Below, piece after piece: positions 3,420 through 15,220 of a stretch of 62,507 nucleotides of DNA (the stretch's first letter is position 1; every line of letters starts with the position of its first letter). The stretch covers positions 1 through 62,507 of the forward strand of contig CAISVF010000322.1 of NCBI GenBank assembly GCA_903888765.1, written 5' to 3'. The translations under genes and the position numbers were made by a program. Source of the DNA: an uncultured Verrucomicrobia subdivision 3 bacterium (lineage in GTDB: Bacteria > Verrucomicrobiota > Verrucomicrobiia > Limisphaerales > UBA11358). The notes below the pieces were generated by a model. It was given only the letters and a program-made list of their open reading frames with translations, had not been told where the DNA came from and did not search any database.

Positions 3420-4445
3420 ACCTTGGTCTGTGAACTCCGGCCCACGTTCATACGCCACCGCATCTTCCTCGGGTTCGCCGTCGCCTTGGCAGCCACCTTC
3501 ACCCGCTGCGGTCTGCGCGTCGTCATCAGCCTCTTACGCACCTTGGGCTTGCGCCAGGCCAACTATGATCGGCTGCTGGACTTTTTCCACAGCTGGTCCT
3601 GAACCAAGCTGCGCACACACGGCTCTGGATCGCACTCATGTTTAAATCTCTGCTACCTTTCCTGCTGATTGTCAAAAGACATATCGCCCTATTGGCCGAT
3701 GGCATCAAAGCTGCCAAAACAGGAAAAGAGATGCTCGGCGTCAAAAAGCTGTATCGGGAGTCCCAGAACAACTCCAAGTCCGAATTCATCTTCGGCCATT
3801 CCGGTCAGGCTATCGCCGTCGTTGTCAAGGTGGCTGACGCCTATTTATTGTTGGCCGGATTTATTCTGCCTTTGCTCCAATCCGACCACCAGCTTGTCAC
3901 CTCTCCCAAATCCAACACCGTTGCCTATGCGGCCCCGGAAAAAACCAATGCCGACGCAGGAGCCGACCAAGGTGCTACGGTCCCAAAGTGAAGCTCAAAC
4001 ACTTGTTCGAGGATGAAAGTCGGTTTGTGTCCACCGCCAGCCCCATATATGGCGAGCGCAACGTCACGCTCCGCTACCAAGTGCGGGATCTTTTGCGGAA
4101 ATCGTTTGGCCTTCGGGTTCGATTCATCCTCGTCATCCATCCGCTGCGGGGCGTAAAATACTGCTTTGCACCGATCTGGCTTTCTCGGCGCTCCAGATTA
4201 TTTAACTCTACGGTGTGCGCTTCAAAATTGAAGTGGCCTTCAAGCAAGCCGTCCACACCATTGGAACCTATAGGTATCAACTCTGGATGCAAGCCGCGAA
4301 ACCACGGCCTTGCCGTTCCGGCGACCAGTATCTGCACAGGGAGTCCCACCTGTATCGGGATCAGCTCCGCCGCAAACTCGCCGCCTATCATTGTCACATG
4401 CAACTGGGCATCATCGCCCAAGGCCAGCTCCAGTGCCTGCCCAGC
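3420..4445 (+). pseudogene. Degraded IS701-like DDE transposase (fragments in several frames)
   Basis: Fragments DGIKAAKTGKEMLGVKKLYRESQNNSKSEFIFGHS, VADAY, RFILVIHP and RFKIEVAFKQAVHTIG...YQLWM resemble IS701/IS4-type transposases. They are broken by frameshifts and deletions. Boundaries are approximate. Confidence 0.65.
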
Positions 4446-5383: not shown

Positions 5384-5711
5384 CTAAATTCCAAACAAAG
5401 GGACGTGGAAACTATCAAATCAACTGGTGAAGTCAATACGAGATTTAATTTTATTTGACACTAATCGCGGCCGGTGTGTGCGGCTCCGGATTTACCCAAC
5501 CCATCCGGGTCGGCCAGCCGCCAGCCAACATCGTTTAGATTGATTCTACCGGTGTTTTTTTCGATTCAAGCATTTACGGGAGAAGCGGTTATGCTGTCGG
5601 TATGAGAAAAATGTTGCGGACGGGTGTGGTAATTATGGCTTGCCTTATCGCCGCCACGGATTTCCAATGGTTATACATAATAAAAGCCGCCCAATCTGAA
5701 AGGTAAACTTT

Positions 5712-8700
5712 ATGGAATTTCTATTTGGCATTTTGACGCTGGCCATCGCCTCCGTGGCTCTTATCCGCTCCCGCCGGGCCATCGAAGCCGGGGAAAAACT
5801 CGCCGAACGGCAGCGGGAATTGGAACTCGAAGTTTACGCCCTGCGAAAAAACCACCGCGAACCTTCAGCCAAAGACCACGTTTCGGAAGCAGATACTCAA
5901 CCTTTCAAACCCGCCATTCTGCCTCCCATAAAAGGTGAGGGTGAAGCCGGGACCATCCTGCCACCGCCGCCGGAAATCCCTCCGGAGCATCGCTGGACAG
6001 TGCCGGTTATCCAGCCGCCAACACCAGCAGAACCCATCGCCACACAGAGCGATCCGGATTTTTCCTTTGCTCCCCCGCCTGCCATTGCCCCCCCGCCGCT
6101 TCCCGCTTTTGCGGTGATCAGCGAAACGCCGGACGCCGCACCCGCAATCGAGGCGGCCGATAACCTGCCACCTATCACCGCCAGTGCAGGATACGAGCCA
6201 CTGCCGGAGGCGGATAAGGCCTCGTTCGAAATGCGCCTGGGAACTTTTTGGCTGGTGCGCATCGGCATCGTAATGCTGCTGACGGGATTGGTCTTCTTTG
6301 GAAATTTTGCCTACCACAACATCGTGGGCAAGCTGGGTCCCGGCGGAAAAATTTCCCTGCTTTACCTGGCCAGTGGACTGCTGCTGGGCGCTGGTGCCTG
6401 GTGGCAGCGGCGCACGGCCAAGGCATCATTAAAGAACTACGCGCAGGTGATTTTTGCCGGCGGGCTGGCGGCGGTTTATTTTACCACCTACGCCGCGTAC
6501 CACATACCGCCACTGCAAGTCATCCGCAGCGCGGTGATGGATGGCGTCCTGCTGCTTGCCTGGGCCGGGGTGATTGCCTGGCTGGCCGACCGCCGCAAAT
6601 CCGAGGTGATGGCCCTGTTTGCCGTGGGCCTCGCCTTTTACAGTTCCATAATGACGCGGGTTGGTGATTTTACGTTGTACTCCAATCTGGTGTTGACCAT
6701 CACCGCCGTGGTGTTCCTGCTCCGCAATCGTTGGGCCAGCTTATCGTTCGCCGGCCTGGTAACCAGCTACGCCGGCTATGCGTTCTGGCGATTCTTGCGG
6801 GAGGAGGGCTGGCGCTGGGCCGCTCCCGACGAACATCTCTATTTCGGCGCATCTTTCCTGGCCTGCTATTGGGCCATCTTTACCGTGGCAGCGTTTCTTT
6901 CCCGTTGTGAAAAACTGAGCGGGGCCAGCCGCGCGACTTTTTTAACCCTTAACAACGGCGCGTTCTTCTCGCTGTTTCTCCTGACCATGTTGCAGGTGCA
7001 TACCGGGGGGTTCTGGAAAGTCAGTCTGGGCTATGGCGTGCTTTTGCTCGCGCTCGCCGGCCTGGCCAAAAAGCAGCTCGCGGATGAACCCCTCGCCAAA
7101 AATGCCTATCTTACCCAGGGCTTGCTGCTGGTCACGCTGGGCTTTATCACCAAGTTCGCCGGGTTTCATCTGGCGCTGGTGCTGGGGGCGGAAAGCGTCG
7201 TGCTGTTTGTTTTGGGCACCCAACGGCAAAGCCTGGTGCTCAAGTTTTTTTCCTATGCCGCCGCCTTGCTTGCCACCGGTTGGTGTGTGATCAGTTTGCA
7301 TCCGCTTGATCCCTCTGGTGGCTGGGCCGGAGTGGGTCTGGGCGGATTGCTGGCCTTTAACGCCTTCTGGGGGTACCGGCAGGAAACCAAAACCGATCCC
7401 GCCAGCGGTCGTCTGGAAAGCTCCACCTTCACGCTGCTGGCCTTCGTCGTCTGGACGGTGGCCACGTGGTTCAACACCGCCGAGCCGCACCTGGCCGTGG
7501 CGCTGGTGCTTGGCGTGGAAAGCGTGGTTTTCTTCAATCTGGTGGCCGCGCGCCGGGTGCTTGCCCCCAAAATAGCGTCGTATGCCAGCGCTGCGTGCGC
7601 GGTGGTGTGGTGGGTCGCGAACCTGCATCCGTTTATAGCTAACGGGCTTTGGCCCGGCCTGGGTCTGGGAACCCTCCTGCTGGTTAACGCTTTTTATGCC
7701 CACCGCGAGCAGGTGGCTGATTCCGCCCCCATCCGGGTTGAACCGGGCGTGTTCACGGTGCTGGCGCTGGTGAGTTGGGCGGCGACCACGTGGTGCAACT
7801 GTACCGCCGAACATCTACCGCTGGTACTGGCCGCCGAGGCGGTCGCACTAACCTTTTCGATTTATCTGCTGCGCATCCGGGAGGTGGCTTTATTCGGACA
7901 ATTTTTTCTGATCGGGGCGCTCCTCACCTGGCTGTTTCATTACCTCAACACCACGCCGCCCTGGTGGAATCCCCTCCTGCTGATTGCGGTGGCCATAGGC
8001 TTGGGGCATTGGTGGCAAAAGCAAAAAACTCTGGTGGTGGAGGAAAACTTTAATCTCGGCTGCCAGGCCCTGTTTGCGCTGGCCGCCGTTGGCGTGATGT
8101 TCGTGTGGCTGCATCCGCTGTTTTCCCCACCTTCGTGGCTCGCCTTGACGAGCCTGCTGGCCGTGATCGCAGTAGGGTACGGTCTGGTCACCCGCGCGTG
8201 GCCGCTCGTGGTCGTCGGCCAGATTTTTCTGGCCGTCAGCGCCTGGGAATTTATCGTGCAGGTGTGGGGCCAGCGCCCGGTTTGGTTCTTTCCACTCGCG
8301 CCGATCCTGGTGCTGGCAATCTTTTCGCTAGCCACCGTTCGCTGGCTGGGCCGCCGGCCGGAGTCCTTGGATAAAGAGCGCGCCCCGCTATTACAGATTG
8401 CCCGGGCTTATCGTTGGGCCGCCTTGGCCATGTCGCTGTGCTGGCTCTGGCAATATATTCCCGAGCGACAGCATGTGGCGGGTTTCATGATTGTCGCAGC
8501 CGTTATGGCTGGCATCGCAGTCTGGCAACGCAACCGCGAAGCCCTGGCGGGCGCGGCGGTTTATGCCGGGATTTCCCTGCTCGCGCTTTGGGCGCGGGAA
8601 GATTTTATCATGGACGTCTATTGGCTCAATCTGGTGTCCGTGCTCCTGGTGTTGCTCACCCAACGGCTGCTGCGCCGCAGTATGGATCGGCTGCCGGTGG

Positions 8701-9041: not shown

Positions 9042-9262
9042 TAGCCGCCAACTGACCAACCGGCCGCACGACCTGCCAGCGAGCCGGTGGTAAAATTCTG
9101 ATAGGCACAAAAGACTGACTGGCAAGGCGCAGGTTTGAATGCCATGACTGCTATGCGCGCGCTGGCATGGGCAGATCAGGGCTCATCCCGACAGGAGTTG
9201 GCAAGTCAAACCGAGCTGAAATTAGGTGTGCCAAACAATGCTTGAAAACTGGTTGAATCACA

Positions 9263-9319
9263 TTAAAACCCCCTGAAATGCGCGGTTTTTGAGTGCGAAT
9301 CCCACCTCTTCCACCAATC
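9263..9319 (+). repeat. Imperfect direct repeat, copy 1 (tRNA-3'-end-like, att-like)
   Basis: ggtttttgagtgcgaatcccacctcttccaccaatc matches 16152-16187 at 32 of 36 positions. It ends like a tRNA T-arm plus acceptor-CCA. Confidence 0.7.
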
Positions 9320-9501
9320 GATTTCATTGGGAAGTCGAAAGCTTTTCGGGATAAAAAAGTCACAAACCAAGGTCGCCTGCCCATCCCCTCAAGCCCTCTC
9401 ATTTAATACCATCGACACGGGTGGGAGATAGTGGCGCGAGGGTAAAGGGTGGATAAGGCTTGGCGTGACATCATTTGCAGGCAATCCAACAATGGCGACT
9501 A

Positions 9502-11013
9502 TCACGCCGCCCCTTTCAAACTGTCGTCCGAATCCTTGATCACAAACCGGGCGCGCAGGCGCGCCACTTCGCTGGCCAGGCCGGCGAGCCGCACAGACTT
9601 CAACACTTCGTTGAAATCCTTGTAAGCCGCCGGCGCTTCATCCTTCGGATACGTGCGGCAGTTCGTCAAAATGTCGTGTACCACAAATTCATCGTCCACC
9701 GTCTTCTGATCCAAATCCCGAATCGCCGCCTTGCGCCCCTTCGCGCGGCCCGCACCATGGTTAACGCTGTAACAGCTTTTGTCCGCGCCCGGGTCAGCAA
9801 CCATCACGCAGGAACCCGCCGTCGGATTGCCGGGCAACAGAATCGGATGACCGGTCTCGTAAAACGGCGTGTTTTTGAGCGCGAAGTGATTCGCCGGGAA
9901 GGCACGGGTGGCACCCTTGCGATGCACCCAGGCTTCCTGATTGTTCACGATTTCGCGGCGGGCAATGTTGTGGCTGATGCAATACACGAGCTGGCCGCGC
10001 GTGCCGGGAATGATTTCCTGGAACGCTTCGAGCACGAGCTGGTTGATGAGCAGGTGGTTCACGGTCGCGAAGTTCGCGCCGAGCGACATGTCGTCAATAT
10101 AATCATCCGCCTCCTGCGTGCCGAGCGGCGCGTAAACCAACTCGCGGTCGTTGCCCGGCAACGGAATGTTCCAGGTCGCAAATTTGTTCTGCAACGCCTG
10201 GAACTGACCTTGGGCCAACGCGTAACCAAAGCCGCGCGAACCGCAGTGTGATAAAAATGCCACACACCCATCGCGCAAACCGAAGACCTCAGCCGCGCGC
10301 CGAGCGCGGTCGTTATCGGCAATCTGCACGGCTTCGCATTCACCAAAATGATTGCCACCGCCATAAGAACCAAGCTGGCGAATTTTGTCCTCAAACTTCG
10401 GGAATTTGCCGGTGCGGATGAGCAAGTCGAGCCGCGCGGCAAGATCGTCGCGCTGATTGCTGTGGCCGACGTGGAACGCGTCTTCGCAATGCGCCGCCCA
10501 CTCCGGCGGAATGCCAAGGTCTTGGCAGACGGCCACAGAGGCTCCTTCAATCGCCACACGGCGGCCGACCTCGCCATTCACGTTGCGACCTTTCTTTACA
10601 TTGCGCTGACCTTTGCCGGCTCCGGTCGGAGTACGTTCGACGATGGCGTTGATGAGTGCGCGGCGAACAGTTTTGTCCGCCACCGCGTCCGCCGGCACAT
10701 CAAGCTGGAGCAAGCTCATGGAGCATTTGATGTCCACGCCGACGGGGCCGGGATAAATGTGTGTCGGCGAAACGAGCACGCAGCCGACGGGTGCGCCGTA
10801 GCCGCAATGCGCGTCAGGATTGAGCACGAGGTCGGTAACGCCCGGCGCACCGCGCGAATTGAGGGCCTGCTCGATGCACTTCGCATCAAACGTCTCGCGG
10901 ATGGCGGCGGTGCCGATCACCGTGATCGGCTTGCCCTGATGGCCCGGCGCGGGAATGAAGCCGGTGGCTTCGCCCGTGGGCTGGATCACCGGCACTGCGG
11001 TTTCTGTGTTCAT
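9502..11013 (-). CDS. rtcB: RNA-splicing/repair ligase RtcB
   Basis: PDAH, GVDIKC, LGSYGGGNHF, HCGSRGFG, SHN, HRKGATRAF, HGAGR and DEAPAAYK. The start is ATG 11013 (MNTETAV), because the longer ORF overlaps an ncRNA. Confidence 0.95.
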   Translation of the reverse strand: MNTETAVPVIQPTGEATGFIPAPGHQGKPITVIGTAAIRETFDAKCIEQALNSRGAPGVTDLVLNPDAHCGYGAPVGCVLVSPTHIYPGPVGVDIKCSMSLLQLDVPADAVADKTVRRALINAIVERTPTGAGKGQRNVKKGRNVNGEVGRRVAIEGASVAVCQDLGIPPEWAAHCEDAFHVGHSNQRDDLAARLDLLIRTGKFPKFEDKIRQLGSYGGGNHFGECEAVQIADNDRARRAAEVFGLRDGCVAFLSHCGSRGFGYALAQGQFQALQNKFATWNIPLPGNDRELVYAPLGTQEADDYIDDMSLGANFATVNHLLINQLVLEAFQEIIPGTRGQLVYCISHNIARREIVNNQEAWVHRKGATRAFPANHFALKNTPFYETGHPILLPGNPTAGSCVMVADPGADKSCYSVNHGAGRAKGRKAAIRDLDQKTVDDEFVVHDILTNCRTYPKDEAPAAYKDFNEVLKSVRLAGLASEVARLRARFVIKDSDDSLKGAA

Positions 11014-11037
11014 AGTTTTATTCTTTTGTCCAAGTGA

Positions 11038-11152
11038 CGGCGCGACAAGTTTTTGCCGAAACAATCGCTCTACCACTGAGCTACGGCCCCGACTGATGGA
11101 GCCGGCGAGATTCGAACTCGCGACAGATGTAGTTCCAACGGCATTCGCACCG
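11038..11152 (-). ncRNA. Y RNA cassette Y6 (YrlA-like tRNA mimic)
   Basis: Terminal stem CGGUGCGA/UCGCGCCG, GCGAAUGCC and UUGUCG motifs. Cargo is T-arm GCGAG-UUCGAAU-CUCGC, closed acceptor CGGCUCC/GGGGCCG and D-arm GCUC-AGUGGUA-GAGC, in permuted order. Confidence 0.85.
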
Positions 11153-11183
11153 AAATCATTTAACTGCGTTAACCAACTAAATA

Positions 11184-11315
11184 CGCGACGACAAAAATTG
11201 GAGAAACATTTTCCGCTGCTCTACCAACTGAGCTACCCCAACCTTCTTGCGGTCGGAGGCTGGATTCGAACCAGCGACCATCGGCTTCATGTAGTTTGCT
11301 CCGGCATTCGTCGCG
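11184..11315 (-). ncRNA. Y RNA cassette Y5 (YrlA-like tRNA mimic)
   Basis: Terminal stem CGCGACGA/UCGUCGCG. Cargo is T-arm GCUGG-UUCGAAU-CCAGC, acceptor CUCCGACC/GGUUGGGG and D-arm GCUC-AGUUGGUA-GAGC. Confidence 0.85.
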
Positions 11316-11321
11316 AAAAAC

Positions 11322-11454
11322 TGTGACGACAAAATTTGATGAAACTGATAACGCGCTCTACCCCTGAGCTACGACCCCATGTGTTGGAGTCGGCAGGACT
11401 CGAACCCGCGACCTCGTCCTTATGAGGGATGTAGTTCCATCGGCATTCGTCACA
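11322..11454 (-). ncRNA. Y RNA cassette Y4 (permuted complete tRNA mimic with CAU anticodon loop)
   Basis: Terminal stem UGUGACGA/UCGUCACA. Cargo is UCC-CUCAUAA-GGACG-AGGUC, T-arm, acceptor CGACUCC/GGGGUCG, D-arm, then GCG. Confidence 0.85.
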
Positions 11455-11468
11455 AATTCTGACTGCAA

Positions 11469-11571
11469 TATGGCGACAAGGATTGATGAGAATTCTCAAC
11501 CGGCCTTGCAGCGGGTCGGGCGGAATTCGAATCCGCTGGTTGCCAATGTAATCTCCCCTGCATTCGCCATA
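11469..11571 (-). ncRNA. Y RNA cassette Y3 (T-arm plus hairpin only)
   Basis: Terminal stem UAUGGCGA/UCGCCAUA, GCGAAUGC..UUACAU, and GCGGA-UUCGAAU-UCCGC. No D-arm is present. Confidence 0.75.
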
Positions 11572-11583
11572 AAATTTCAAAGA

Positions 11584-11712
11584 AGCAGCGCGACAATCGG
11601 GTGCAAGACAGTATTGAGCTATTCCGCTTGCGCGGAACCGGGAAACGAACCCGGACGCTCTGGCGTTGGGCCAGTTGCTCTACCATGTAGTCCTGCGGGC
11701 ATTCCCGCCGCT
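11584..11712 (-). ncRNA. Y RNA cassette Y2 (tRNA mimic opened in the D-loop)
   Basis: Terminal stem AGCGGCG/CGCUGCU and inner stem GCAGGAC/GUCUUGC. Cargo is UGGUAGAGC, CUGG/CCAG arm, CCGGG-UUCGUUU-CCCGG, UUCCGC-GCAA-GCGGAA, then UAGCUCAA. Confidence 0.75.
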
Positions 11713-11745
11713 CCAAATTTCTGAAAAATCAATTCCGCTTTCAGA

Positions 11746-11811
11746 GCGGGCCGACAAGTTGTTGCCGAGACAGAACAGGTTAAATGTAGTCTCAAGCGGC
11801 ATTCGGCCCGC
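11746..11811 (-). ncRNA. Y RNA cassette Y1 (minimal 66-nt Ro-binding scaffold, no tRNA domain)
   Basis: GCGGGCCGAAUGCC...UUGAGAC-UACAU...GUCUCGG...UUGUCGGCCCGC carries the same motifs as the other five cassettes. Confidence 0.75.
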
Positions 11812-11874: not shown

Positions 11875-13428
11875 TCACAATGCGAGCGACTCAATCGTTC
11901 CCACCCAGTGATCGGCACCCAACCGGCCTTCAGCGAAGGCGGCGATGACTTGAAACACCTGGTCGGAAAAACCGCCAATGTTCAAGATATCCTCGCGTTC
12001 CAACGCCTGCACCGTCGCGTAAGGCTGGATATCAATACACACCAACCGCGCCTGCGGATTGAACCGTTTAAACACCGACCATTGGCGCATCGTCTCAGTG
12101 CCGCGGCCACCCTTGGCATCCACCCACGACTGGTTGTCGGAGACGAACACCACCAAGTCGCCCTTGGCCTGCTTTTGGTTCAGCCACGCAAGCGGCGCAC
12201 TGCAGTTCGTGCCACCGCCGCCCACGGCGGCGAGCTTCTGGGCGTTGGTCATCACACTATCGCGGCTGTTCAACGACACGTTCACGACGTTATTCTCGAA
12301 GGGCACCACTTCGGCCTGCGGATTCTGGCGCAAGATGGACGCCGCCACCAAGGCCGCCACATCCACACATCGCACCGACGTGGTCGCGCCGGCTCGCTGG
12401 CCCGTCACGGCCGAACCCATCGAACCCGACACATCCGGGCAGACATACACCTTGCCCGCGATGCGCGGAATGTTCTCCGTCGCGACTTCCATCGCGTCCT
12501 GGAGCGCGTCCCGAATCAAGTTCGGCACATCGCCACCGGCCGCTTTGAACGCCATCAACAACTGATACGGAAACACGCGAGCGCGTTTCACCGCGTCGGC
12601 ACTCGCCAGGCGGTTGGCGATCAATTTCACCATGACCTCGTTGTCGAACACGCCGTGCCGAGCAAACGTGTTCAAGTTCATGCGCGTCATCTGCCACGGA
12701 GCTTTCTTCGCGATCGCCGTCCACTCGGCTTTGCCGAGATCCAAGGCGGTCAACATCTGGAAAGCCACGTCCGGCACTTCATCCCGCTGGCCGCCCTTGA
12801 AGGCTTCGAACTGCTTCACGATTCCGGGCAGCGCCGCGGCATTATGTTTCCGACCAAGCAAATAACCGTAGAACGCGTCCCGGGTCGCATTGCCGGGTTT
12901 CGGGTGAACCATCTTGACGAGGTCCGCCAAAGACGGAGCATTGCCCACCGACACTCGGAACAACTGTTCATCCGTGCGGGATTCGAGCCAGCGCTGGACC
13001 AATTTCTTTGGCACCGTGCCGAGTGATTTGCGGCCCACCACACCGGAACGCAACACCTGGACGAAATTGCGGAGCATCTTGCCGTCATCGATCACCCGGT
13101 CGAACACGGTGCGGAGCAATGGCGGATCTTTCACCGACAACGCCGCGCACAATAAGGCCGGCATATCCTTCATGAAACCCTTCTCACGGGCATACACGGC
13201 GGTCTTGGCGACGAACTGCGCGTCCACTTCCTTCGTCAAGGTGAGCACCTTTTGGAGCTGGTCCTCGGCGGAGGCATAATAGGTCGAGTTCAAACAGCCG
13301 GTCGCCGCGTATTGGGCGAGCGCCTGCTTCGGCGCGAGCGTGTAAGCCCGGCCACCCGCTTCGTTGATGGCATCGGTCTGCGGCAAGAGCGCCCCGCGCA
13401 AGGATTGGAATAATGATTGGTTAGCCAT
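11875..13428 (-). CDS. rsr: Ro60-related TROVE-domain RNA-binding protein
   Basis: NEAGGRAY start, TROVE helical region (GFMKDMPALL, RMNLNTF, VFPYQL) and a C-terminal vWA domain with MIDAS DVSGSM, GGGTNC and VSDNQSW. Confidence 0.93.
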   Translation of the reverse strand: MANQSLFQSLRGALLPQTDAINEAGGRAYTLAPKQALAQYAATGCLNSTYYASAEDQLQKVLTLTKEVDAQFVAKTAVYAREKGFMKDMPALLCAALSVKDPPLLRTVFDRVIDDGKMLRNFVQVLRSGVVGRKSLGTVPKKLVQRWLESRTDEQLFRVSVGNAPSLADLVKMVHPKPGNATRDAFYGYLLGRKHNAAALPGIVKQFEAFKGGQRDEVPDVAFQMLTALDLGKAEWTAIAKKAPWQMTRMNLNTFARHGVFDNEVMVKLIANRLASADAVKRARVFPYQLLMAFKAAGGDVPNLIRDALQDAMEVATENIPRIAGKVYVCPDVSGSMGSAVTGQRAGATTSVRCVDVAALVAASILRQNPQAEVVPFENNVVNVSLNSRDSVMTNAQKLAAVGGGGTNCSAPLAWLNQKQAKGDLVVFVSDNQSWVDAKGGRGTETMRQWSVFKRFNPQARLVCIDIQPYATVQALEREDILNIGGFSDQVFQVIAAFAEGRLGADHWVGTIESLAL

Positions 13429-13463: not shown

Positions 13464-13480
13464 AGCAGCCACCGTGCCAA
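13464..13480 (-). promoter_or_regulatory. Sigma54 (-24/-12) promoter of the rsr-Y RNA-rtcB operon
   Basis: Minus strand TTGGCACGGTGGCTGCT has GG-N10-GC spacing, ~35 nt upstream of the rsr ATG and next to a divergent enhancer-binding protein. Confidence 0.85.
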
Positions 13481-13612: not shown

Positions 13613-15220
13613 ATGACAGCCAGGAAACAGGTGGTGATCGGTCTGCTCGGCAGTGTGCTGGATTACGGCTTTCACCAGGAACGCTGGCATAAGTGGCGCC
13701 CGAGCGTTTCTTTGTGCAAACACGCGGACCTGCCGATTGACCGGTTTGAACTCATTTACGATCCCAAGTTCAAAGACATGGCCAACGTGGTCATGGCGGA
13801 TATTTCCACCGTCTCGCCGGGAACCGAAGTCCGCGGCACCACCCAACCATTGCGTGATCCTTGGGATTTCGAGGAAGTGTATGCCGCGCTGCATGACTTT
13901 GTGCGTGGCTACGAATTCAAGCCGGACACAGAAGATTACCTCGTCCACATCACCACTGGTTCGCATGTGCAGCAGATTTGCCTATTCCTGCTGACCGAGT
14001 CGCGTCATTTTCCGGCGCGCCTGTTGCAAAGCTCGCCGGCGGATGCCAAACGGCGCGGACCTGAAGGGAAGTTCGCCATCATCGATCTCGACCTCTCCAA
14101 ATATGACCGGCTGGCCTCACGATTCGGCAAGGAGCTAAAGGAGGCGCGGACGTTCCTCAAGTCGGGCATTGCCACGCGTAACGAACATTTCAATCAGCTT
14201 ATCGAGCAGATTGAGCATGTCTCAATCAATGCGAAAGATCCTGTCTTGCTGACCGGACCTACGGGCGCGGGAAAGTCGCAGCTCGCCCGGCGCATCTACG
14301 AACTGAAAAAATCACGGCACCAGATCGCGGGAGCATTTGTGGAGGTGAACTGCGCCACGCTGCGCGGCGACTCGGCCATGTCGGCACTCTTCGGCCACGT
14401 CAAAGGGGCGTTCACTGGGGCGGTAAAAGATCGGCCCGGCCTGTTGCGTGCCGCTGACGGGGGCTTGCTTTTCCTGGACGAAATCGGCGAGCTGGGACTG
14501 GACGAACAGGCGATGCTTCTCCGGGCGCTGGAAGAAAAACGCTTTTTGCCTTTCGGTGGCGACTGCGAGGTCACCAGCAATTTTCAATTGATTGCCGGCA
14601 CGAATCGCGATCTGCAACGCGCCGTCCAGGAAGGCCGCTTTCGCGAAGACCTGCTGGCCCGGACCAACCTCTGGACATTTCATCTGCCGGGCTTGCGCCA
14701 ACGTCCGGAGGACATCGAACCCAATCTGGATTACGAGCTGGAACAATTCGCGCGCAAGAGCAGCCAGCGCGTCACCATGAGCAAGGAGGTGCGCGAAGCT
14801 TTTTTGAAATTTGCCCGATCACCGGCGGCAAAATGGACCGCGAATTTTCGTGACTTGAACGCGTGTATTACCCGCATGGCCACGCTGGCACCCGGCGGTC
14901 GCATTACCGCACCCGTCTTGGATGGTGAAATGCAACGCTTGAAGACCGCCTGGACCACGCCGATGGCAAACGATGACCACGGCACCGTGCTTTCTGAAGT
15001 TCTCAGTGACGCAGCGAAAGATCAACTCGACCTATTCGATCAGGCGCAACTGGCTTTCGTCATTCGCGTGTGCCACGAATCCACGACTCTTTCCGACGCC
15101 GGTCGCAAACTCTTCGCCGCCACCCGGGAAAATCGAAAAACCGCCAACGATGCCGATAGGCTTCGCAAATACCTCGCCCGTTTTGACCTCGGTTGGCAGG
15201 ATATAAAATTAAAAAACTAG
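13613..15220 (+). CDS. rtcR: Sigma54-dependent RNA-repair transcriptional activator RtcR
   Basis: N-terminal RtcR/CARF domain (WRPSVSLC, DPWDFEEVY, HITTGSHVQQIC), Walker A GPTGAGKS, GAFTGA, LFLDEIGE and C-terminal NDADRLRKYLARF. Confidence 0.95.
   Translation: MTARKQVVIGLLGSVLDYGFHQERWHKWRPSVSLCKHADLPIDRFELIYDPKFKDMANVVMADISTVSPGTEVRGTTQPLRDPWDFEEVYAALHDFVRGYEFKPDTEDYLVHITTGSHVQQICLFLLTESRHFPARLLQSSPADAKRRGPEGKFAIIDLDLSKYDRLASRFGKELKEARTFLKSGIATRNEHFNQLIEQIEHVSINAKDPVLLTGPTGAGKSQLARRIYELKKSRHQIAGAFVEVNCATLRGDSAMSALFGHVKGAFTGAVKDRPGLLRAADGGLLFLDEIGELGLDEQAMLLRALEEKRFLPFGGDCEVTSNFQLIAGTNRDLQRAVQEGRFREDLLARTNLWTFHLPGLRQRPEDIEPNLDYELEQFARKSSQRVTMSKEVREAFLKFARSPAAKWTANFRDLNACITRMATLAPGGRITAPVLDGEMQRLKTAWTTPMANDDHGTVLSEVLSDAAKDQLDLFDQAQLAFVIRVCHESTTLSDAGRKLFAATRENRKTANDADRLRKYLARFDLGWQDIKLKN

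Follow-up and report, generated by a model that had tools for sequence, protein, structure and literature searches.

The window analysed here is a 62,507-nt stretch of an uncultured Verrucomicrobia subdivision 3 bacterium (contig CAISVF010000322.1). All coordinates refer to this whole stretch, and RNA features are given on the strand as marked. It contains an operon in which rsr, six Y RNA cassettes and rtcB all lie on the minus strand, with rtcR divergent from them. The cassettes are numbered Y1 to Y6 starting at Ro, and a GAAUGC-containing stem opens each of the six. Our subject is the fourth cassette, Y4, which a sequence-only reading had described as a complete circularly permuted tRNA(CAU) near an RNA ligase gene. 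The ligase is confirmed by its Pfam match, and Ro lies on the other side of the array:

13613 to 15220, plus strand: rtcR, a sigma-54 enhancer-binding activator, divergent from the operon (Pfam RtcR 268.9 bits, Sigma54_activat 166.6 bits)
11875 to 13428, minus strand: rsr, the Ro60 ortholog, 517 amino acids (Pfam vWA_Ro60 74.6 bits, TROVE 34 bits)
11320 to 11453, minus strand: Y4, by sequence a Y RNA of the YrlA type that includes a whole-tRNA mimic (Rfam YrlA 68.8 bits, cut-off 69)
9502 to 11013, minus strand: rtcB, RNA 3'-phosphate/5'-OH ligase (Pfam RtcB 328.1 bits)

Y4 follows rsr on the same strand, beginning 422 nt after its stop, inside the distance of 4 kb from a Ro60 ortholog that serves as a Y RNA criterion in the accessible text of Chen et al. 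(2014). Rfam was run at its curated cut-offs and separately in E-value mode, and all 4 YrlA matches in the 5.4-Mb genome fall within the Ro-rtcB array. Y4 aligns end to end with the YrlA model RF02553 (model positions 1-114), and its ortholog in locus L085 scores 72.6 bits with the same model. The basal stem pairs 11453-11447 with 11329-11323, a second stem pairs 11441-11434 with 11345-11338, and both covary in relatives. Above them Y4 has the T arm, loop-closed acceptor and D arm of the YrlA tRNA-like module, whose helices 5-7 covary. Because of its genomic position, its basal-stem motif and its tRNA-like arms, we read Y4 as a genuine YrlA-type Y RNA, a class assignment made from sequence.

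According to the part of the Wang et al. (2018) preprint available to us, YrlA 'lacks the anticodon loop', and the equivalent of the anticodon stem continues into the Ro-binding stem. In the Rfam alignment Y4 carries 14 extra nt between the conserved CUAC and the variable loop. The parts of the molecule are the following:

11444 to 11451, minus strand: Ro-binding-module motif GACGAAUG on the 5' strand of the basal stem, fitting the published motif GNCGAAN0-1G (Chen et al. 2014, legend of Fig. 3)
11417 to 11429, minus strand: anticodon-arm hairpin UCC / CUCAUAA / GGA, conserved and covarying in 44 aligned relatives
11415 to 11416, minus strand: CG at tRNA positions 42-43, pairing with CG at 11353-11352 (positions 27-28) and completing a 5-bp stem (covariation)
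11393 to 11409, minus strand: T arm of 5 bp with loop UUCGAGU (Rfam alignment, ARAGORN, covariation)
11372 to 11392, minus strand: 7-bp acceptor stem, 11392-11386 with 11378-11372 (sequence, ARAGORN)
11355 to 11369, minus strand: D arm of 4 bp, loop AGGGGUA with G18 and G19 (Rfam alignment, ARAGORN)

The anticodon-like loop spans 11426-11420 with the triplet CAU at 11424-11422 (the plus strand reads ATG), and the variable loop AGGUC at 11414-11410 precedes the T arm. A 7-nt loop, AACACAU (11385-11379), joins the two acceptor strands, and CCA is absent. The chain is broken between positions 28 and 29, where both strands run into the Ro-binding stem. The anticodon coordinates, the break at 28/29 beside the Ro scaffold and the short acceptor linker proposed earlier thus all hold, on the minus strand.

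We rejoined the two halves by script, placing 11378-11352 (5' half, G1-G28) before 11429-11385 (3' half, U29-A73). The product is a 72-nt tRNA-Met(cat) cloverleaf by ARAGORN with all stems paired: a 7-bp acceptor with one G-U, a 4-bp D stem, a 5-bp anticodon stem with the 7-nt loop CUCAUAA, a 5-nt variable loop and a 5-bp T stem. Y4 therefore carries its 3' half before its 5' half and yields a cloverleaf on rejoining, as a permuted tRNA does, by a program that is lenient. By the same lenient program 44 of the 45 class members described below are called as tRNAs with the expected triplet when rejoined. As a test of the anticodon arm ARAGORN proved uninformative: it calls a tRNA for 171 of 238 arbitrary junctions and still does so in 937 of 1000 cases after shuffling of the 13-nt hairpin. 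Of 5000 shuffles of these 13 nt, 5 combine a 3-bp stem with a 7-nt loop having Y32, U33 and R37; this frequency, together with the conservation and covariation in relatives, argues that the arm did not arise by chance. Run on the unpermuted window, ARAGORN does not call Y4 and finds 2 tRNAs elsewhere.

Several other origins were considered and set aside. We rejected a recent copying of Y4 from a host tRNA: among the 36 tRNAs found in the genome, whose assembly is incomplete, the closest agrees with the rejoined sequence at 56 of 72 positions, and the only tRNA(CAU) found at 54 of 72. Y4 is not a transfer-messenger RNA (tmRNA) or permuted tmRNA, the Rfam tmRNA_permuted and tmRNA models matching at 12-27 bits (cut-off 47 bits) over the T arm and acceptor only; the two-piece tmRNA model RF04321 likewise gives 23.5 bits, confined to T arm and acceptor. 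In the phage collection 8 records match, none covering 80% of Y4, and those that are annotated are tRNA genes. The accessible text of Chen et al. (2014) warns of tRNA-gene false positives in Y RNA searches.

We then compared Y4 with its relatives. Relatives of the window's Ro protein numbered 378 in one-genome-per-species contigs, of which the best 80 loci (referred to by L numbers) were examined. Their taxonomy is that of the record titles, and some titles of metagenome-assembled genomes (Bifidobacteriaceae, Baltobacteraceae, Heliomicrobium) look like binning errors. By title the nearest are Verrucomicrobiota (Pedosphaera- or Limisphaerales-like), the remainder being mostly Acidobacteriota (Pyrinomonadaceae) with Ro 64-70% identical. 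A covariance model, R1, was built from Y4 alone with the proposed structure. It gave 290 matches over 81 sources (the 80 Ro loci and the window), and the best 150 were aligned; Y4 scores 174.5 bits against its own model and its orthologs 84-149 bits.

The composite arm, a 5-bp stem closed by a 7-nt loop that must immediately follow CUACA(U), is found in 45 of these best 150 matches, which come from 43 of the 80 Ro loci and the window (L071 has two). The sequence-only reading had held that loss of the arm from orthologous cassettes would mark it as a neutral relic; its retention indicates that it is not one. The break falls at 28/29 (2 + 3 bp) in 31 cassettes and at 29/30 (3 + 2 bp) in 14, and the two parts add up to 5 bp in every case. 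Insert length alone (22-25 nt), taken as the definition of the class, returns 62 cassettes: 45 strict members, 8 near misses with a D arm, which have 6-nt loops or 4-bp stems, and 9 cassettes of other types.

For covariation 44 of the 45 members were aligned with MAFFT, leaving out L058 (cassette at 3690-3914), in which an insertion of ∼90 nt, itself an inverted repeat, lies within the acceptor loop. A separate MAFFT alignment of Y4, Y5 and Y6 was misaligned around the insertion and was not used. RNAalifold, blind to the proposed structure, predicts the hairpin in the 44-sequence alignment, with two-sided changes at its two pairs in 21 and in 7 sequences; one hairpin pair is C-G in 21 and G-C in 21 sequences, and another occurs as four pair types. 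The D-side pairs of the anticodon stem (27-28 with 42-43) alternate as well, between C-G (27) and G-C (14) and between G-C (27) and C-G (15), with 96.6% of cells paired. For the full proposed structure 97.7% of cells are paired compared with 85.1% in column shuffles, of which 0 of 500 reach this value, and with 36-50% when the partner is slid, although such percentages are partly built in by choosing the 45 cassettes with a pairing rule. Fairer measures are the count of cassettes defined by length and the covariation and variety of pair types: 19 pairs are changed on both sides.

The loop of the 45 cassettes follows the consensus Y32-U33-NNN-R37-A38 of tRNA anticodon loops (Y32 in 43, U33 in 42, R37 in 42 and A38 in 40), and the triplet takes 21 different forms. 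CAU is seen in three of the 45 cassettes, those of the window, L016 and L083. Eight verrucomicrobial loci with Ro 84-89% identical read UUAAAGA (triplet AAA) and one reads UUAAGGA (AAG). Of two further genomes from the same order, L085 has CUCAAGA and L087 UUACAGA. A34 is present in 12 of 45 members, and one triplet is UUA. From these patterns stem length and the loop positions that define its shape appear to be under selection, and the triplet does not.

A free triplet would also suit a hairpin that is a structural cap only, steadying the junction and inheriting its likeness to an anticodon loop from a tRNA ancestor with no present use. This explanation further gains from the dispensability of Y4 in L006 (see below) and from the neighbouring Y2-type cassettes, which cap the same stem with tetraloops or short loops. 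We nevertheless regard it as very unlikely: the 7-nt loop, Y32, U33, R37 and A38 are kept in 40-43 of the 45 cassettes across loci titled with different phyla, the stem totals 5 bp although the break point moves, and a mere cap ought to have drifted towards tetraloops, as in Y2.

The architecture extends beyond these loci. A plasmid BLAST search returned full-length Y4 matches in 6 of 9 records, and four of the loci, each with rtcR and Ro - Y RNAs - RtcB and each from a cultured proteobacterium, are these:

L098, Rhizobium johnstonii pRlX2: large plasmid of a cultured proteobacterium
L099, Methylosinus trichosporium OB3b pOB3b1: large plasmid of a cultured proteobacterium
L100, Shinella sp. 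HZN7 pShin-02: large plasmid, with a second RtcB-family gene
L101, Xanthomonas sacchari R1 plasmid: large plasmid, also with rtcA

Read by eye, the hairpin is AGG/CCU with loop CUGUUAA in Shinella, UCG/CGA with loop CUUAUGA in Methylosinus, and AGC/GCU with loops CUCUUAA and CUCCGAA in two Xanthomonas cassettes; the Rhizobium hairpin AGA/UCU with loop UCGUUAA is less canonical. The PLSDB gene table, which holds no RNA genes, lists no feature in the plasmid RNA region and names Ro as an RNA-binding, hypothetical or VWA protein.

A second Ro-linked scaffold, found in eight genomes of the order (L088-L095), differs in its basal part, lacks GAAUGC and carries the same permuted tRNA with an anticodon arm:

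L088, 1501 to 1633: second scaffold
L089, 1119 to 1251: second scaffold
L090, 1501 to 1634: second scaffold
L091 to L095, from 1501: second scaffold

This scaffold is flanked by RtcB, several real tRNA genes and a strongly TROVE-like Ro, and these loci match the Deinococcus_Y_RNA model (RF01053) weakly, at 47-53 bits compared with a cut-off of 80. By eye, its triplets are CAU in 4 of 8, then GUU, GAU, CCU and GAA, and the acceptor loop starts with N73-CCA-GAU/C in most of the eight.

In six acidobacterial loci with Pyrinomonadaceae titles, 22-30 packed tRNA genes reach the Ro start on the same strand, and the Y RNA cassettes follow Ro. These arrays upstream of Ro cover most amino acids:

L076, 25 to 3931: tRNA array beside Ro
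L038, 5 to 3862: tRNA array beside Ro
L065, 5 to 3928: tRNA array beside Ro
L036, 30 to 3931: tRNA array beside Ro
L028, 509 to 3847: tRNA array beside Ro
L034, 802 to 3838: tRNA array beside Ro

R1 matches at model positions 25-102 upstream of acidobacterial Ro genes were at one point candidates for permuted tRNAs without a Y stem; they are real tRNA-array neighbours.

The CAU triplet of Y4 itself might point to a decoy or sensor specific for CAU, in which Y4 would mimic tRNA-Met or tRNA-Ile2 and each lineage's triplet would track its nuclease. The genome's own tRNA(CAU) has exactly the loop CUCAUAA in its anticodon arm, A73 is present in Y4, and CAU recurs in L016, L083 and half of the second-scaffold members; triplets that differ by lineage between fixed flanking positions are what an arms race might give. 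Against this, CAU is found in 3 of 45 cassettes, and the AAA of eight close relatives and the AAG of another are unusual as bacterial anticodons. No nuclease gene was identified among the scanned neighbours of the locus (a DUF2339 protein, a nitroreductase and a 621-aa protein without a Pfam family). We therefore judge CAU specificity unlikely, though targets that differ from lineage to lineage are conceivable. The earlier proposal of a decoy or sensor for Met/Ile-CAU nucleases survives in its general part, a decoy for anticodon nucleases being possible, and loses its tie to CAU on account of the 21 triplets.

The same reading had offered as its other option a precursor that RtcB circularizes into a back-up tRNA: after excision of the Ro-binding stem, RtcB would ligate G28 to U29, and a working tRNA(CAU) would be released once the acceptor loop is opened. 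The rejoined Y4 is indeed a flawless cloverleaf, RtcB adjoins the array, and related Ro/RtcB loci contain real tRNA arrays. Permuted tRNA genes that mature through a circle exist in algae and one archaeon, and the available part of Wang et al. (2018) raises the possibility for YrlA. Such a tRNA calls for a conserved triplet that can decode; in the class the triplet is unconserved, A34 is frequent and one member reads UUA, and near-miss orthologs have 6-nt loops or 4-bp stems. The tRNA splicing endonuclease family PF01974 has 0 matches in the genome (92.9% complete), the 4 archaeal control genomes being positive. Y4 has no CCA, and its closest relative with flanking sequence, L006, has no Y4 cassette. 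The stems and the CUACA motif, finally, are conserved as in Ro-binding Y RNAs and unlike an intron. The back-up tRNA thus finds no support, and we hold this route to be extremely improbable.

A different kind of processing would act on the acceptor loop and is compatible with the whole-tRNA mimic that we favour below. RNase P would cut 5' of G1 to leave a two-piece, CCA-ended split tRNA mimic, possibly aminoacylated, whose halves are held by the acceptor and Ro-binding stems and whose 3' tail, once trimmed, ends in or receives CCA. In the text of Chen et al. (2014) available to us, Mycobacterium smegmatis YrlA is cut by RNase P, its 7-bp acceptor stem being named as the reason; Y4 has a 7-bp acceptor stem as well, and a type A RNase P RNA is present in the genome (224.5 bits). 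Acceptor-loop starts among the 44 class cassettes include N73-CCA (6), N73-N-CCA (9) and N73-(A/G/U)CA (11), and most second-scaffold members have the CCA described above. The loop of Y4 itself reads ACA, not CCA, however, and A73 can pair with U-1, which would lengthen the closed stem to 8 bp. Armless cassettes have CCA-like starts too (5 N73-CCA and 14 N73-DCA of 61), and position 74 varies among close relatives. On balance we see RNase P processing as possible, though on the unlikely side.

Taken together, we favour, at a probability of about 0.6, a reading in which Y4 mimics a whole tRNA, is tethered to Ro and probably offers a partner the shape of an anticodon loop, without decoding and without specificity for Met or Ile. 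Its anticodon arm would be a three-way junction in which the D-side and variable-loop-side strands contribute 2 bp (3 in some lineages) and a 3-bp (or 2-bp) hairpin with the 7-nt loop joins these upper pairs without a linker on the 3' strand. Since this linker is absent, coaxial stacking is the natural geometry; it would produce one 5-bp anticodon stem, from which the Ro-binding stem exits sideways at 28/29 or 29/30. The RNA would be bound by Ro, and its surface, shaped like an anticodon loop, would be open to a factor that recognizes the anticodon arms of tRNAs. The likeliest partners would be an anticodon nuclease, with Y4 as decoy or sponge, and/or the RtcB/RtcR repair-sensing machinery of the same operon. 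YrlA has been suggested to act as a competitive inhibitor of an anticodon nuclease (Hughes et al. 2020), and the ligand of RtcR is a nicked tRNA ending in a 2',3'-cyclic phosphate (Hughes et al. 2023, PMC10159003).

More speculatively, Y4-type RNAs could be sentinel tRNAs, baits tethered to Ro with an alarm and a repair enzyme in the same operon. RNase P would open the acceptor loop to a CCA-like end, and an anticodon nuclease would cut the loop, the triplet drifting or diversifying with the tRNA-cutting toxins of each lineage. The cut mimic, nicked and bearing a 2',3'-cyclic phosphate, would itself be the RtcR-activating ligand, and resealing by RtcB would reset the sensor. We think this full cycle improbable as it stands.

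A number of observations weigh against the whole-tRNA mimic. For Y4 alone, RNAfold favours a rod-like fold at -50.4 kcal/mol over the cloverleaf structure at -38.8 kcal/mol; the case for the cloverleaf therefore rests on the comparison with relatives, whose selection by pairing has been mentioned. Y4 also falls 0.2 bits short of the RF02553 gathering cut-off, a shortfall due to the 14-nt insertion. In L006, the closest relative with enough flank (Ro 94% identical), Y1-Y3, Y5 and Y6 are present and Y4 is absent. Within a sample of the order an R1 match (E ≤ 1e-15) was obtained in 12 of 121 genomes, and one genome of the same genus, 97% complete, has none; the Y4 cassette is dispensable. Variation of the triplet would be expected of a purely structural cap too. 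The coaxial stacking, moreover, is deduced from modelled geometry, and the partner protein is proposed by analogy.

Part of the window is contained in 20 of the 21 public read runs listed, the 6 RNA runs containing 0.06-0.09 of its words. Contigs from 4 of the RNA runs (90% likeness) are mostly 20-35-nt tRNA pieces of other organisms, and apparent 'joints' in them are ordinary tRNAs bridging D-arm-like and T-arm-like parts of different cassettes. A few longer pieces from relatives map to the array, X18 record 20 spanning 11288-11417. Such contigs cannot show a start, an end, a junction or a circle and so speak neither for nor against processing.

In place of Y4, L006 has an unrelated long inverted repeat (6067-6168), and another lies between its Y1 and Y2 (5690-5800); both look like inserted hairpin elements.

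On the tRNA-like domain of bacterial Y RNAs, the accessible text of Chen et al. (2014) states that its interactors were not known to the authors; a later suggestion from the field was competition with an anticodon nuclease (Hughes et al. 2020). The Y4 class narrows the search for a partner: an arm with the tRNA loop consensus in Verrucomicrobiota- and Acidobacteriota-titled loci and on proteobacterial plasmids would suggest a partner that reads the anticodon arm and not the elbow only. Y4-type RNAs are present in cultured strains (Methylosinus trichosporium OB3b, Rhizobium) and hence experimentally accessible. The Rfam YrlA cut-off narrowly misses such cassettes, and tRNA finders report them only after permuting.

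The remaining features of the array are as follows:

11746 to 11811, minus strand: Y1, a short Y-RNA-like stem-loop with the GAAUGC motif and without a tRNA-like module (weak; Rfam YrlB 17 bits, E 3.3)
11585 to 11714, minus strand: Y2, with a tRNA-like module broken in the D loop (GAATGC motif; partial Rfam YrlA match, 17.5 bits)
11467 to 11570, minus strand: Y3, YrlA-like, without a D arm (Rfam YrlA 38.5 bits, R1 36.6 bits)
11182 to 11314, minus strand: Y5, YrlA-like, with an 8-nt insertion that extends the anticodon-stem equivalent and no added loop (Rfam YrlA 67.1 bits)
11036 to 11151, minus strand: Y6, a canonical YrlA (Rfam YrlA 80.5 bits, above the cut-off of 69)
13465 to 13479, minus strand: candidate sigma-54-like -24/-12 element (TGGCAC-N5-CTGC), 37 nt upstream of the rsr start, with one mismatch to the consensus

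At its curated cut-off Rfam recognizes Y6 as the only YrlA. The Y1 equivalent in L006 scores 24 bits with R1. Immediately 3' of Y1, within the array, is a terminator-like hairpin with a U-rich tail (11735-11749, minus strand), which could attenuate read-through to Y2-Y6 and rtcB; 4 terminator-like sites were found compared with 6.5 expected from shuffles. Y2 has a contiguous 5-bp stem with a 5-nt loop as the counterpart of the anticodon arm, GCAA closes its acceptor, and its minimum free energy structure by RNAfold is cloverleaf-like. It reads as a tRNA mimic permuted at a different point, CUACAU being followed by GGUAGAGC at the D-loop break. In other loci there are 13 Y2-like cassettes whose same stem is capped by short loops or tetraloops, for example GAAA and UUCG. 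The sigma-54-like site is a candidate on the strength of its position, as 86 such matches were found across the window compared with 97 expected from shuffles. The minus-strand list of open reading frames has no rtcA-sized frame after rtcB (9151-9500), unlike the Salmonella and Xanthomonas sacchari loci; RtcA was not searched for genome-wide.

Compared with known systems, Y4 is closest to YrlA itself (RF02553; Salmonella Typhimurium, M. smegmatis), which it resembles in its adjacency to rsr, joined in this locus by rtcB and rtcR, and in the basal-stem motif, CUAC, T arm, closed acceptor and D arm. Y4 and its orthologs differ from it by an added hairpin, through which the stem reaches 5 bp and a 7-nt anticodon-like loop is formed. 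No YrlA with an anticodon loop turned up in full-text searches of the literature, though the supplements of Chen et al. (2014), with 355 YrlAs, may already show such cassettes; the Y4 class is apparently an undescribed YrlA subclass. The nearest precedent is Yrn1 of Deinococcus radiodurans (RF01053), a Ro-bound RNA modelled with an 'anticodon arm' of 5 bp in the accessible text of Chen et al. (2014). As modelled there, Yrn1 has a 6-nt loop, no full D arm and no variable arm, whereas Y4 has all arms and a 7-nt loop.

The resemblance of YrlA to permuted tRNAs and its possible processing are already in the available part of Wang et al. (2018). In red and green algae and in one archaeon, permuted tRNA genes (Soma et al. 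2007, as cited there) place the 3' half first and have an acceptor that is initially a closed loop, as in Y4. Their precursors are cut at a bulge-helix-bulge by the splicing endonuclease and become working tRNAs with conserved anticodons, whereas the triplet of the Y4 class is unconserved and the 'intervening' part of Y4 is a conserved Ro-binding module. An engineered permuted nicked tRNA that serves as RtcR ligand (PMC10159003) shares with Y4 a loop-closed acceptor, a chain interrupted in the anticodon arm and the RtcR/RtcB system; it is artificial, has both termini within the anticodon loop and depends on a 2',3'-cyclic phosphate end, whereas Y4 is interrupted in the stem with its loop intact. 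In cyanobacteria, long stress-induced tRNA arrays near rtcB have been proposed to be sponges for toxin RNases (Santamaria-Gomez et al. 2021, PMC8421152). Like Y4 they supply extra tRNA-shaped molecules linked to rtcB, and long arrays stand beside Ro in relatives of the Y4 locus. They consist of ordinary tRNA genes in a paper that makes no mention of Ro or Y RNA, whereas Y4 is, on the reading we favour, a mimic scaffolded on Ro.

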